The notes under the pieces were generated by a model that saw only the letters and a list, made by a program, of their open reading frames with translations, had not been told where the DNA came from and ran no database searches. 64,000 nt of DNA. It comes from a virus. The stretch spans positions 16,399 through 80,398 of the IMG/VR virus record IMGVR_UViG_3300023174_007844. One strand, given 5' to 3'. This document shows, one piece after another, positions 16,148 to 45,552 of this stretch (within the stretch, counting starts at the first letter, position 1; each line of letters opens with the position of its first letter). Position numbers and translations under genes: made by a program.

Positions 16148-16690
16148 ATGCAAGATTTTTTAAAATTTCATCTTTTCTGTGAAGATGAAAAAAAATATGA
16201 AGAATTACCAGATAATACCCTAATTCTATCATTTACCATTCCTGGCAGACCATCAACCAAGAAAACTTCACAAAGGGTGGTTAGAAGAGGCAAATACACT
16301 AAGATTTTGCCATCTGCTCTTTACGAACGATATGAATTACATTGCAAAGAATATTGTGAATATTTCTGGCAAAGATTTAAACTAAACCCCATTGATTTTG
16401 GCATTGGAATAAAACTCAATGTTTATTTAGATTCTTGGATTGTTGGTGATGAATGCGGATATCAACAAGCTCACGGTGACATTATTCAAAAGCATGGAAT
16501 TATTGCTGATGATATGTGGATTCATTGGATGGACAAAGATTCACATATGATTAATTATGATAAGGAAAATCCTAGAGTGGAAGTGGAAATTTACAGATAT
16601 AGACATCCAAAAGAACAATTTAGAAATGAAAAATTAGAAAAGGAAGCAATAAAAGAAGCAAAGAAGAAGAATAAAACAACCAAGGAATAG
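16148..16690 (+). CDS. RusA-like Holliday junction resolvase
   Basis: TIPGRPSTKK, GIIADD, YDKENPRVEVEI. Confidence 0.75.
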   Translation: MQDFLKFHLFCEDEKKYEELPDNTLILSFTIPGRPSTKKTSQRVVRRGKYTKILPSALYERYELHCKEYCEYFWQRFKLNPIDFGIGIKLNVYLDSWIVGDECGYQQAHGDIIQKHGIIADDMWIHWMDKDSHMINYDKENPRVEVEIYRYRHPKEQFRNEKLEKEAIKEAKKKNKTTKE

Positions 16691-33337: not shown

Positions 33338-33566
33338 AAATAGTTAGAAGATTATTTGTTTTCTTTGTAATCGGTTTCATCACTTATCTTTTATTATCAA
33401 TGAAATAAAAGATTTATCTGGAGGGAAAGTATGAACGACAAAGATAGAAAACGTGATGCTTTATTTGTAATCTTATATAGCATTATAGGATACTTGATTA
33501 TTCTCATAGCAACAAGATAATAATTTGTAAAAGGTTATAAATTATAAAATTATAAATAAATAAATT

Positions 33567-34595
33567 ATGTTAAGAATTTCTACATCTGCTTGTTTATCAT
33601 ATGCTAAACTTTGTGACTCATATGGATATTATGAACAAGCAGATTTTTATGAAAATTTAGTAAATGTAAGATTGTCTCAATTAAATTACGATTACGAAAA
33701 ACAACCAGCTTGGATTAAGGAACAATCAGCTCCTGAAAAAGCTTTCTTTCAAACATTACAATATCCATATAAATTATTAGAAAAATCAAACGCTTCTGCA
33801 AAACAAAAAGATCTCATAACAGATGCTGCGTTTGGTTCTATGGATGCGTTTGATGTAGCATTCACCTCTCCACAAGCAATTCAAGCTGCAAGAAAAGCAA
33901 AAGATTTAGCAACCTTAATAAAGAATAATCCAGCTGCAGCAGAATCTGCAAAAAAAGCAGCTACACAAATTTCCACCAAAATACCAATATTAAGTAAACT
34001 TATTTCAATAACACCTTTTATAGGCGTTTTAATTAATCTTTATTTGTCAAGACAAGAGATAGCAAAATATTTTGACCTTATCAATAATGGAAAATTTGAT
34101 GAAATTTGGAATGATCCTGAAGAAAGATCCAAATTTATTGAAATCGTAATAATGACAATTGCAGGTGCTTTAACACTACCTGTTGTTGCAGCTATACCTG
34201 TATATGGACAAATTATGTTTGCCACAGGAACAGCTTTATATGCTGTTTCAAGCACACTTACTTTAGGTCGCACAGCTATTGACGCTTATTTAGTAGGTAC
34301 AGGTGAAAAAAATTCTGTAACTGAAGCAATTAGTAAAGATGATTATTCTTTAGAACAAAATGAAATAGTTGGAATATTACAAGGCACAAGTCAAGATATT
34401 AAAGACGCTGTCAAAATTGCAGCAAAACACCTTAAAAATAACCCAGCAGCCAAATATATTGAAATTTTTGCATTACCTGAAATAAAAAATTATCCTTGGA
34501 TACAATCTCACAACACTCCCGAAGATAATCTCAAATATAATAAGTTTATGCAAATATTATCAATTTTAAGAAAATTATCTAAACGCTCTAAATAA
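33567..34595 (+). CDS. Tagged protein with hydrophobic hairpin
   Basis: Leader YAKLCDSYGYYEQADFYENLVNVRLSQ; hydrophobic IVIMTIAGALTLPVVAAIPVYGQIMFATGTALYAV. Confidence 0.7.
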   Translation: MLRISTSACLSYAKLCDSYGYYEQADFYENLVNVRLSQLNYDYEKQPAWIKEQSAPEKAFFQTLQYPYKLLEKSNASAKQKDLITDAAFGSMDAFDVAFTSPQAIQAARKAKDLATLIKNNPAAAESAKKAATQISTKIPILSKLISITPFIGVLINLYLSRQEIAKYFDLINNGKFDEIWNDPEERSKFIEIVIMTIAGALTLPVVAAIPVYGQIMFATGTALYAVSSTLTLGRTAIDAYLVGTGEKNSVTEAISKDDYSLEQNEIVGILQGTSQDIKDAVKIAAKHLKNNPAAKYIEIFALPEIKNYPWIQSHNTPEDNLKYNKFMQILSILRKLSKRSK

Positions 34596-34619
34596 AAAAC
34601 CCCCAAGAGGGGGTTTTTT
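34594..34619. terminator. Bidirectional terminator
   Basis: AAAAAACCCCC-AAGA-GGGGGTTTTTT between convergent genes. Confidence 0.85.
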
Positions 34620-34621
34620 AT

Positions 34622-35812
34622 TTAGAAAAGTTTTACTTCAAAATCTTCTTCTTCAGATGAATCTCTTGGGATTGTAAAACCATATGTTTTCATAACATAT
34701 TGAATTAAATTGTTTGCAATATGTTCGCCCAAATCAATCAGAGCCATGTTATAAAGTTCTTTTTTTGTTATGCCTGGTTTTATAGATCCATTGTTTTTCT
34801 TTCTTGTTAAATATTTTTCCATAGTTTCAATAGGGGTATCAAACAATTTTGCTTTTTTTCTATCAGCATCAATTTCATTTGTTAAGCGCCCTACATTTGA
34901 ACCATCTGTGCCTGTTGCCTTTGGAGCATCAGGTTTTTGTTTTCCTTTCATTAAAGCTGCCGTACCAGCAGCTGAAGCACCAGAAAAAAGCAATGCTGTA
35001 ACTGCAGGACTCATAGTTCTCTTCCAAGGTCCCATGCTATACAAATAACTTCTCATAGGAATTGTGCTGTGTTGAAGTACTTGTTCAATCATATTGTCTG
35101 TAGTGAAAGAATTGTCATACAACATTCCTCTCAATTGCCTTTCGGAAGCAATACTAGCTTTGATTTGGTTTGCATTTTCCATATTTCTTGGAATTCCATA
35201 CGTACTACAAACGTGATCTATTGCTGTTTCTATAAGTGCAACATGAGCATCTCTCATCTGAACAAGTTCATTTTCTAAAGGACTTACTAATTGTTCTCTT
35301 TCTCGTGGATGAGCTTCTAACCAATCATCAATTTCATCATCAGCTAAATGATGCATTCTCTTAATTTCTTCAATTCTAGTGTCGTAAAGAGTTTTCCATC
35401 TTGCATATAACTGTGGAAATTCTTTTTGCTTAGATTGGACTTGTCTGTAAGCTGGTTGTAGAGCATTGATGATGCGATCAATTAATCTTGAATTGCTTCT
35501 ACCAACCATTGGATTATGACCACTTACATTTTTTTCATCATCTAATAATTCCAAAACTTCATCATAATCAGGTACAGTTCTCATGCGATCTATAACATTT
35601 GGACCTCTACTTAAATCACGTACTTGTCTTCTGGCCCTCGCTGATTCATCACCAACTCCACGTATTCTGTCAACAAATCTTCTCCAACCAGTTTGAAATG
35701 GATTTTGAGCTTCTTTGATTAAGTTGTCAATTTTGTCAGCTGATTTATAATCTCCATCACGATCAGCTTCCATAGCCAATTTTATGTACTTGTTTAATTG
35801 ATTTTCTTGCAT
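34622..35812 (-). CDS. Tagged protein with Ala/Gly hydrophobic segment
   Basis: Leader YIKLAMEADRDGDYKSADKIDNLIKEAQ; AVTALLFSGASAAGTAAL. Confidence 0.7.
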   Translation of the reverse strand: MQENQLNKYIKLAMEADRDGDYKSADKIDNLIKEAQNPFQTGWRRFVDRIRGVGDESARARRQVRDLSRGPNVIDRMRTVPDYDEVLELLDDEKNVSGHNPMVGRSNSRLIDRIINALQPAYRQVQSKQKEFPQLYARWKTLYDTRIEEIKRMHHLADDEIDDWLEAHPREREQLVSPLENELVQMRDAHVALIETAIDHVCSTYGIPRNMENANQIKASIASERQLRGMLYDNSFTTDNMIEQVLQHSTIPMRSYLYSMGPWKRTMSPAVTALLFSGASAAGTAALMKGKQKPDAPKATGTDGSNVGRLTNEIDADRKKAKLFDTPIETMEKYLTRKKNNGSIKPGITKKELYNMALIDLGEHIANNLIQYVMKTYGFTIPRDSSEEEDFEVKLF

Positions 35813-35893
35813 AATGTATAGTCCTAAAATACAAACTCTCTTATTTTATATTACAGAATATTTCTAACACACCTTTTTAAGTATAAGAAAAGA

Positions 35894-36993: not shown

Positions 36994-37177
36994 CACTACT
37001 AGACTTACAAATAAATTTATATATTGACAACCTTACCAACCCTAAGGTAAAATAAATTATGAAAGAACAACGCAAACTAATAGAAAGAATTTTTGGAATG
37101 GTAGTAGTAATTGCAACAATGATTATTCTCAAAGTAGCTTGCGATTAGATTTTTCTTTGGTATAATAGTTTTGATGG

Positions 37178-37459
37178 TGGCCAGTAGCACAATGGCAGTG
37201 CATTTGACTGTGGATTGATAGCAGCTTATTAGAGTAATTTAATATAGAAAATTGTCGAAATTCAGTGAAAGCTAAGTCGAAAGATATGCCAACACTGAGC
37301 CAAGCCCGTAAGGGAAGGTGCAGAGACTATAATGACAACATCCTACTAGGTATTGCTAAGGATGATGGTATAGTCCAGACTACAAACAGATTTATCTGGT
37401 AGTGAAAACTATAGTAGTAAGTAATCAAAGGGTTGATAGTTCGAGTCTATCCTGGCCAG
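37178..37459 (+). tRNA. tRNA-Asn(GTT) interrupted by a group I intron (exons 37178-37211, 37422-37459)
   Basis: Acceptor TGGCCAG/CTGGCCA, D-arm GCAC/GTGC, spliced anticodon arm TTTGA-CTGTTAA-TCAAA, T-arm GATAG-TTCGAGT-CTATC. Confidence 0.9.
37212..37421 (+). mobile_element. Group I self-splicing intron, 210 nt, between tRNA positions 35/36
   Basis: Exon ends in U, intron ends in G; P1 CTGT/GCAG with U.G; P10 GATTG/TAATC; P AATTCAGTGAA, Q AACACTGAGC, R CAGAGACTA, S GGTATAGTCC. Confidence 0.9.
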
Positions 37460-37547
37460 TAAATAATCCTCATATTTATTTATGGGGATTATTTGTTTTA
37501 AAGGGTATAATTGTATTTGATTCGAATAAATTATTGGTAGTACAAAA

Positions 37548-38333: not shown

Positions 38334-38350
38334 GGTATAATCCTTGTGAT

Positions 38351-38423
38351 GGCCTGTTAGTCGAGTGGTTAAGATGCCTCCCTTTCACGGAGGAGACCAG
38401 GGGTTCGATACCCCTACAGGCTA
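38351..38423 (+). tRNA. tRNA-Glu(TTC)
   Basis: GGCCTGT/ACAGGCT, CCTCC-CTTTCAC-GGAGG, AGGGG-TTCGATA-CCCCT. Confidence 0.93.
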
Positions 38424-38447
38424 TTTGTGGTATAATGTATTTGTTGT

Positions 38448-38518
38448 TCTCTGGTGGTGTAACGGTAGCACAGAGGTTTTTGGTGCCTTTAGTTGGAGTT
38501 CGAATCTCTACCGGAGAA
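38448..38518 (+). tRNA. tRNA-Gln(TTG)
   Basis: TCTCTGG/CCGGAGA, GAGGT-TTTTGGT-GCCTT, TGGAG-TTCGAAT-CTCTA. Confidence 0.88.
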
Positions 38519-38523
38519 CCTTT

Positions 38524-38594
38524 GCTCCATTAGTATAAAGATAGTACGGATCTCTTGTAAAGATTGGGTAGGCGTTTGATTCGTCTATGGAGCT
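38524..38594 (+). tRNA. tRNA-Thr(TGT)
   Basis: GCTCCAT/ATGGAGC, GATCT-CTTGTAA-AGATT, AGGCG-TTTGATT-CGTCT (atypical T-loop). Confidence 0.8.
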
Positions 38595-38624
38595 CCTTTC
38601 CCTTTTTTGTGATATAATAAAGTT

Positions 38625-42254: not shown

Positions 42255-42327
42255 GCAACCGTAGCTCAGTGGATAGAGCAAATGCCTTCTAAGCATTTGG
42301 CCACAGGTTCGAGTCCTGTCGGTTGTA
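42255..42327 (+). tRNA. tRNA-Arg(TCT)
   Basis: GCAACCG/CGGTTGT, AATGC-CTTCTAA-GCATT, ACAGG-TTCGAGT-CCTGT. Confidence 0.95.
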
Positions 42328-44961: not shown

Positions 44962-45552
44962 ATGGATACTTTTTTTTGTGAATTGGGCAGTGATAAGTAT
45001 ATAAGAGAAAATTTTTTTTCTGACTATCAATACAAAGGGACAATGGTTGAAGTTGGAGGGGGACATCCAGAATTATATTCAACATCAAAACATTGGATAG
45101 ACAATGGCTGGAGAGCGATCATTTTTGAACCACAACCTAAATTTTTTGAAATGCATAAAAATTTAAACAATGAAGTATATGATGTTGCAATTTCAAATGC
45201 TTGTGGTGAAGATATAGACTTTCATATTTGTAAAGATTCGATGGGTATGTCAGCTTCAGCTTTAGCACATAGAATTGGACAATACAATTTAGATCAAATA
45301 ATTAAAACTAACACTATAACTTTGGACAAAGCTTTAGATGTTATTGATGTAAATAAAATTGATATTGTAAATATAGATGTTGAAGGCTGGGAATTGGAAG
45401 TTATGCAGGGTTTTAGCCCAGAAAAATATAATTTTCCTCTTATTGTACTTGAAAACTTTACTAGAAGTTCTTCATATATAGAGTATATGGAAAAAATTGG
45501 TTATAAATTAATTTGGAATCTTGAATATAATTATTTATTCCAACATGAATAA
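44962..45552 (+). CDS. FkbM family methyltransferase
   Basis: VEVGG, FEPQP, TLD, IDVEGWELEVMQG, IVLEN. Confidence 0.88.
   Translation: MDTFFCELGSDKYIRENFFSDYQYKGTMVEVGGGHPELYSTSKHWIDNGWRAIIFEPQPKFFEMHKNLNNEVYDVAISNACGEDIDFHICKDSMGMSASALAHRIGQYNLDQIIKTNTITLDKALDVIDVNKIDIVNIDVEGWELEVMQGFSPEKYNFPLIVLENFTRSSSYIEYMEKIGYKLIWNLEYNYLFQHE

Follow-up and report, generated by a model that had tools for sequence, protein, structure and literature searches.

A predicted group I intron inside the anticodon of a tRNA-Asn(GUU) gene of uncultured phages

Group I introns of phages are familiar from protein genes, including td, nrdB and sunY of T4, genes of SPO1 and Twort, and genes for DNA polymerase, RNR and terminase. 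A group I intron in a bacterial tRNA gene, that of Azoarcus tRNA-Ile, belongs to subgroup IC3. T4 SegB is a free-standing homing endonuclease in a phage tRNA cluster, and the psbA intron of cyanophage S-PM2 together with F-CphI provides a precedent for collaborative homing.

According to a review of 2014, every phage intron known at that time lay in a protein gene, although phages carry many tRNA genes (PMC3984707). Devoto et al. (2019; PMC6784885), who knew of no earlier phage tRNA introns, described 'enigmatic' tRNA introns in Lak megaphages, and Lui et al. (2021) report group I introns in some tRNAs of CPR genomes. A preprint by Williams (2020; bioRxiv 10.1101/2020.01.27.920355) raises the number of settings of bacterial tRNA group I introns from four to 21, includes an 'Asn.4Ug' entry in its seed alignment, and cites a group I database in which the family with the classical tRNA-Leu(UAA) intron is IC3. 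By that count, the list of classical hosts (Leu(UAA), fMet, Ile and Arg tRNAs) offered in an original prediction made for the DNA studied here is out of date. The kind of intron considered below is known in bacteria, as Asn.4Ug, and its phage setting is poorly documented in the open-access literature, where we found no description of group I introns in phage tRNA genes.

The split tRNA-Asn gene

The window, that is, the whole stretch of 64,000 nucleotides analysed, covers positions 16,399 to 80,398 of IMG/VR record IMGVR_UViG_3300023174_007844. The record is an uncultured fragment with a CheckV completeness of 22%, and its viral nature is indicated by its inclusion in IMG/VR and by PHROG matches. 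ARAGORN with introns allowed places a tRNA-Asn(GUU) gene at window positions 37178-37459 on the plus strand (anticodon gtt, 'actgt-intron-taatc', intron of 210 nt), with the intron between anticodon nucleotides 35 and 36. Of 30 trial in-silico splice joins, only 37211|37422 gives a tRNA-Asn with a 7-nt loop, and the coordinates and the 35/36 split named in the original prediction are thus exact. The spliced cloverleaf has 72 nt and stems of 7 bp (acceptor), 4 bp (D), 5 bp (anticodon) and 5 bp (T) with no mispairs, together with the T loop TTCGAGT, discriminator G and a GUU anticodon. The predicted ligated junction reads ...GACUGU|UAAUCAAA..., and the anticodon loop of the predicted mature tRNA, CUGUUAA, is of the ordinary type. 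In keeping with the Asn.4Ug label, the gene is a tRNA-Asn, the intron follows loop nucleotide 4, a U occupies position -1 and a G ends the intron. We consider the gene to be very probably a functional phage tRNA-Asn(GUU) gene interrupted by a compact, ORF-less IC3-type group I intron in the 'Asn.4Ug' setting.

The promoter-like site listed in Table 1 ends 11 nt upstream of the tRNA start and is conserved in the relatives L249 and L399 (related loci are cited by L numbers throughout). The hairpin that follows the gene is kept with compensatory changes in L399 and is absent from the consensus-scan list. Flanked by the promoter-like site on one side and by the hairpin and its T-run on the other, the split tRNA-Asn appears to form its own transcription unit.

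Table 1. Features of the split tRNA-Asn gene, its intron and its surroundings, in window coordinates
Feature	Position	Strand	Basis and remarks
Promoter-like site, TTGCGA-16-TATAAT with TG extension	37139..37166	+	Consensus scan, 10/12 matches; putative function
tRNA-Asn(GUU) exon 1	37178..37211	+	ARAGORN -i; acceptor strand, D arm, 5' anticodon-stem strand, C32 U33 G34 U35
P1	37206..37226	+	Read from sequence; exon GACUGU (37206-37211) with guide GCAGCU (37221-37226)
Group I intron, 210 nt, IC3-like, no endonuclease ORF	37212..37421	+	RF00028, covariation, MFE fold
P2	37228..37243	+	6 bp, GUAA (GNRA) loop; all 6 pairs change on both sides across the family
P3	37252-37256 with 37334-37338	+	100% paired, compensatory change at all 5 pairs; encloses P4, P5 and P6
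P4	37262-37267 / 37293-37298	+	98% paired
P5	37271-37289	+	CUAAG...UAUG 11-nt-receptor-like motif, GAAA loop; 89-97% paired
P6	37299-37319	+	GUAA loop; 91-95% paired
P7	GACUAU 37325-37330 with AUAGUC 37370-37375	+	Putative guanosine-binding helix; encloses P8
P8	37339-37344 / 37359-37364	+	Compensatory changes at 4 pairs
P9	37379-37383 / 37414-37418	+	99% paired; followed by AAG with terminal G 37421
P9a	37387-37398	+	Inner hairpin of P9
P9b	37400-37411	+	GAAA loop; 100% paired, both-sided changes at all 4 pairs
tRNA-Asn exon 2	37422..37459	+	ARAGORN -i; U36 A37 A38, 3' anticodon-stem strand, variable loop, T arm, acceptor strand, discriminator G
Hairpin with T-rich tail, likely terminator	37465..37499	+	Read by eye
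Free-standing HNH endonuclease gene, 261 aa	37548..38333	+	phrog_2255, E 2e-33
tRNA-Glu(UUC), tRNA-Gln(UUG), tRNA-Thr(UGU)	38350..38596	+	ARAGORN, Rfam; uninterrupted; cluster kept in about 40 related contigs
tRNA-Arg(UCU), uninterrupted	42255..42327	+	ARAGORN; empty site for the L249 paralogous intron

Identity and structure of the intron

A local cmscan of 451 nt aligns positions 37202-37397 with the full Rfam model RF00028 (Intron_gpI, model positions 1-253) at 83.5 bits and an E-value of 6e-22, well above the gathering score of 50; Infernal with group I covariance models was a check proposed in the original prediction. The match is reproduced by a separate Rfam search of the viral record. 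It is missing from Rfam scans of the whole 64-kb window at both thresholds, and since the local scan recovers it, the miss reflects loss to speed filters rather than absence. A second, weak Intron_gpI match at window positions 45070-45240 (15.9 bits) lies inside an FkbM methyltransferase ORF, is not reproduced locally and was rejected as spurious. The interrupted gene is likewise unseen by default tRNA finders: ARAGORN with default settings and the Rfam tRNA model, applied to the window, find four other tRNAs and not the split tRNA-Asn, as the original prediction had expected of standard scanners. Because routine tools miss both gene and intron, phage tRNA inventories, and the arguments on codon usage and host that are derived from them, are incomplete.

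The helices P1-P9 were drawn by hand and then checked on an alignment of relatives. The window copy has the pair U37211.G37221 at its 5' splice site and ends in G37421; this U.G pair is kept in 29/29 aligned relatives, and a terminal G stands at the intron 3' end in every listed copy. In P7, 5/6 pairs are invariant in 29/29 relatives. The core is compact, having no P5abc or P7.1/7.2, only 3 nt between P7 and P3', and a P5 that is a single hairpin. GNRA loops on P2 and P9b and the CUAAG/UAUG motif in P5 are present at the level of sequence, and the tetraloop-receptor contacts typical of IC3 introns (L2, and L9 with P5/P8) are putative here. An MFE fold independently recovers the non-pseudoknot helices P2, P4-P6, P7, P8 and P9 (z = -2.8). 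The intron contains a single ORF, of 45 aa with a GTG start, and an endonuclease ORF is absent.

Relatives were gathered by scanning IMG/VR with a P7'-P9 motif, which gave at least 119 loci. ARAGORN -i with long introns returned many ghost calls and was replaced by a custom half-tRNA finder that requires tRNA halves, a U before the intron, a G at the intron end and a 7-nt loop. At least 50 interrupted tRNA genes, mostly tRNA-Leu(UAA), occur among the loci, a tally to be set beside the statement of 2014 that every phage intron known at that time lay in a protein gene. Among the matches listed, the interrupted tRNAs are Leu(UAA) at 34/35 (at least 52), Asn(GUU) at 35/36, Lys(UUU) at 35/36, Arg(UCU) at 33/34 and 34/35, CAU at 33/34, and Gln(UUG); an interrupted Thr(UGU) comes from a separate scan, and we read its position as 34/35 by the U.G rule. 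IC3 tRNA introns thus appear to be common in uncultured phages, and phages may be vehicles that carry them between bacteria.

Full-length alignment is possible between the window intron and 12 introns at the classical Leu(UAA) 34/35 site, with a mean column identity of 61%. These 12 are included in an alignment of 29 phage tRNA introns, on which the P1-P9 model pairs 89.4% of cells, as against 31-42% when the partners are slid. Both-sided (compensatory) changes are found at 39/59 pairs, and 0/500 shuffles reach any of the pairing or covariation measures. The covariation and the Leu(UAA) alignment indicate that the window intron is an ordinary member of the family to which the classical tRNA-Leu(UAA) intron belongs. 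The proposal that a group I intron resides in a phage tRNA is accordingly well supported by the covariance-model score, the covariation across 29 tRNA introns, the natural empty sites described below and the viral nature of the record.

Several other searches were less productive. An IMG/VR pattern combining exon end and guide, with 14 specified bases, returned chance matches only, and a generic P7 pattern found introns in protein genes, none of them close to the window intron. A blastn search against cultured phages gave short core matches only, inside RNR, DNA polymerase and terminase genes. A scan of genome contigs yielded mostly ordinary tandem tRNAs and one true split tRNA, L348.

Other members of the collection have features of their own. 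Seven IMG/VR loci (L406, L431, L433, L463, L484, L485 and L423) are split tRNAs with a UAA anticodon interrupted at the classical 34/35 site, and their variable loop is short (class I), which sets them apart from bacterial tRNA-Leu. The tRNA-Lys(UUU) gene at L245:1847-2576 (minus strand) has a 657-nt intron at 35/36 with an ORF for a PD-(D/E)XK endonuclease (Pfam PDDEXK_5, E 3e-21), and a related family of HNH proteins, about 165-180 aa long, is encoded in twelve other long tRNA introns.

Splicing itself is expected from membership in the group I family. The 3' end of exon 1, GACUGU, would pair with the intron guide GCAGCU to form P1, in which a U.G wobble marks the splice site. A free guanosine, bound in P7, would attack after U35, the terminal G (37421) would then replace the guanosine, and the freed 3'-OH of U35 would attack before U36, so that ...CUGU would be joined to UAAUC... 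and the GUU anticodon created. A protein helper may be needed. In the window allele P1 contains an A.C mismatch at A37207, leaving 4 contiguous pairs, whereas other alleles (types 2 and 3, described below) have GGCUGU exons with which the guide forms every pair; on this comparison the intron seems to have come to the window allele secondarily. The original prediction also included a P10 (GATTG/TAATC), which is weak; it can be drawn in the window copy but is not kept in homologues with a TAACC 3' exon. L499 retains GGATTG beside a TAACC exon, and the first six intron nucleotides vary (GGATTG, AAATTG, GAACAG, AAATAG, GAAAAG) and do not track the 3' exon. P10 as drawn is probably fortuitous.

Empty sites, expression and mobility

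Related loci were gathered through the neighbouring HNH protein and the upstream methyltransferase, giving about 40 contigs, all from related phages with a tRNA-Asn, Glu, Gln, Thr cluster in common. Some of these contigs exceed 300 kb, which, considered with the 22% completeness of the window record, indicates very large phages. The intron (209-211 nt) occurs in at least 14 contigs in copies 94-98% identical to that of the window, all core elements intact, and many other contigs have an uninterrupted tRNA-Asn at the same place. The tRNA-Asn bodies are of three types, starting TGGCCAG (type 1; window and L492), TCCAACT (type 2; nine loci) and TCCTTAA (type 3; L500), and exon identity between types is 56-58%. 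Two of the three bodies also exist without the intron. The intron-less genes of L503, L504, L508 and L509 are identical to the joined exons of L500, and the intron-less L501:2845-2917 equals the ligated exons of the window except for a 1-nt D-loop indel and two compensated anticodon-stem pairs; these empty-site tRNAs score 73.8 and 66.6 bits on the Rfam tRNA model. Empty sites in L501, L503-L516, L522 and L528 thus amount to a presence/absence polymorphism at a conserved site. Because empty-site alleles match the predicted ligated exons, the junction CTGT|TAA is supplied by nature, in agreement with the CTGT|TAATC junction originally foreseen. In an alignment of the window with L249 and L399 the flanks are conserved, the exons replaced and the intron conserved. 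The finding of a near-identical intron in three bodies that are only about 56% alike, two of which also occur intron-less, shows by comparison that the intron is mobile at the DNA level.

The phage is present in lake and freshwater metagenomes, and 89-97% of the sampled sequence words occur in the lake runs X1-X3. Contigs from three lake metatranscriptome studies cover positions 37217-37456 at 95-99% identity. One of them continues into a type 2 exon 1 and is thus an unspliced precursor of a relative. These contigs cover the intron and exon ends only, and no ligated junction is seen in them; RNA libraries can contain DNA, and the uncovered flanks carry no weight. A reader might suppose from this, and from the P1 mismatch in the window allele, that the intron no longer splices and that the split tRNA-Asn is a pseudogene. 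However, the intron persists with its core complete in all the copies counted above, and the exons still fold into faultless cloverleaves, intron-bearing alleles showing compensatory changes. For example, one T-stem pair is A-U in the window and G-C in L492, both intron-bearing, which speaks for use of the split gene and hence for its splicing. We regard a dead relic as extremely improbable and continue to treat the gene as functional.

A paralogous intron has a different distribution. At L249:6308-6549 (minus strand) the orthologous tRNA-Arg(UCU) contains a 231-nt group I intron at 34/35, and a blastn comparison of the window with the L249 tRNA-Arg breaks at 42288/42289, within the uninterrupted window gene. 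Over 59 nt the L249 Arg intron matches the window Asn intron, at the 3' end of the latter. Elsewhere in the window, positions 33521-35874 constitute an indel of about 2.35 kb: L249 and L399 join 33520 directly to 35875 and lack the ORFs 33567-34595 (+) and 34622-35812 (-).

The intron may move with help in trans from a free-standing enzyme, for which the neighbouring HNH is a candidate, by reverse splicing into tRNA-Asn RNA with the 4-6 nt of P1 pairing as the guide, or by recombination between co-infecting phages. The window HNH protein has no Pfam match at E 0.01, and its name rests on PHROG and on CxxC / HxxxH-type motifs. Across loci L491-L540 the HNH gene occupies a slot after tRNA-Asn or after tRNA-Glu, resembling free-standing homing endonucleases like T4 SegB. 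In collaborative homing, this enzyme would cleave the uninterrupted tRNA-Asn gene of a co-infecting relative, close to or at the point of insertion. Repair from the HNH-bearing genome would then copy in the ORF-less intron, and the intron would shield the genome that carries it from cleavage. Such a route is suggested by the start of the HNH gene only 90 nt downstream of the split tRNA, and by the close relatives in which an HNH (75-93% identical) directly follows tRNA-Asn, since 10 of 11 such contigs have the intron and the sole exception, L501, has two changed anticodon-stem pairs adjoining the insertion site. Longer relatives of the intron family, moreover, encode HNH endonucleases inside the intron.

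The wider distribution does not follow this pattern. The association in 10 of 11 contigs is confounded by close kinship, and in a sister group, whose tRNA-Asn is mostly uninterrupted, an HNH 50-54% identical follows tRNA-Glu and precedes tRNA-Gln. L535 has the intron and no HNH in the cluster, L532 has the intron and only a 36% relative beyond tRNA-Thr, in L519 and L540 the intron is accompanied by the HNH in the other slot, an HNH goes with an intron-less tRNA-Asn in about 13 contigs, and L522 and L528 have neither. Joint inheritance is therefore not what is found: all four combinations occur, with the HNH in two cluster slots, and as intron and HNH each occur without the other they are separate mobile elements. 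Repair from the conserved outer flanks would also be expected to co-convert the exons, which differ right up to the intron, and the window HNH is unlike the intron-encoded HNHs beyond the catalytic motif. A helper role for the HNH is possible, but the distribution does not support it, and we judge collaborative homing to be unlikely.

The lack of co-conversion next to the intron speaks for a route at the RNA level, in which the excised intron would reverse-splice into tRNA-Asn transcripts of any body through P1 pairing with (G/A)CUGU and would be fixed by reverse transcription and recombination. Such a route could account for the same intron in three exon bodies with little in common outside the anticodon loop, for an intron without an endonuclease gene, and for paralogous introns elsewhere among the tRNAs of this phage lineage, which obey the rule of a U at -1. 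Nevertheless, an unsystematic look at the window noticed no reverse transcriptase, DNA fixation of reverse-spliced group I introns has to our knowledge never been shown in nature, and the same pattern may have arisen by two recombination events that replaced the exons around an intron already in place. Mobility by way of RNA is quite improbable in our estimation. The more general proposal is that an ORF-less intron spreads among diverged tRNA-Asn genes, with paralogues among tRNA-Arg and other genes, in huge freshwater phages and without exon co-conversion, in a manner that fits RNA-guided reverse splicing, or an endonuclease acting in trans with very short conversion tracts, better than classical homing; we put it forward tentatively, as an unlikely reading. 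If it were true, this phage lineage would be a natural test system for the long-proposed reverse-splicing route of group I intron transposition. In any case, the three exon backgrounds, with their sites filled or empty and the HNH present or absent, provide a comparative set on the mobility of an intron lacking an endonuclease.

The original prediction raised a speculative link to anticodon nucleases, according to which the intron would not be a neutral selfish insert but would hide the anticodon loop from such host enzymes, or would time the supply of tRNA-Asn. The precursor, as read, indeed lacks a normal anticodon loop, and the interrupted phage tRNAs among the matches listed (Asn, Lys, Arg-UCU, Thr, Leu-UAA, Gln) read A/U-rich codons. 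However, the mature loop is ordinary, so that splicing removes any protection; intron-less alleles are common in sister phages, which do well; and the set of tRNAs hit is what would be expected from the U(-1) rule and the tRNAs that phages carry. The link finds no support here, and we consider an adaptive role very unlikely.

Comparison with known systems

The group I introns of phage protein genes resemble the window intron in being of the self-splicing type, as predicted here, and in being often linked with HNH or GIY-YIG endonucleases; they differ in lying in coding genes and in belonging mostly to subgroup IA, whereas the window intron lies in a tRNA. T4 SegB and F-CphI of S-PM2 share with this locus the presence of a free-standing endonuclease, in a tRNA cluster and adjoining an ORF-less intron, respectively, but the window enzyme is an HNH rather than a GIY-YIG protein and assorts independently of the intron. 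The tRNA introns of Lak phages (PMC6784885), like that of the window, occur in very large uncultured phages, are highly conserved and show presence/absence polymorphism. They were not assigned to group I, whereas the window intron is, judged by its sequence, a clear-cut group I ribozyme.

Further counterparts are tRNA introns of bacteria and plastids. The classical cyanobacterial and plastid tRNA-Leu(UAA) intron (Leu.3Ug) has the P1-P9 architecture in common with the window intron, which is located in a different tRNA and one nucleotide further 3'. An example of the same setting is L348 (L348:6328-6730), in the Candidatus Paceibacterota MAG JBBDVD010000031.1, where a tRNA-Asn contains a 331-nt intron at 35/36; together with the Asn.4Ug entry in the seed alignment, this example bears out the remark in the original prediction that 35/36 Asn introns occur in Patescibacteria. 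L348 and the window share the same tRNA and site, the U at -1, the terminal G, the guide GCAGC and the P7 core. They differ in that L348 belongs to a bacterium and, at 331 nt, has extra peripheral helices, whereas the window intron belongs to a phage and has 210 nt.
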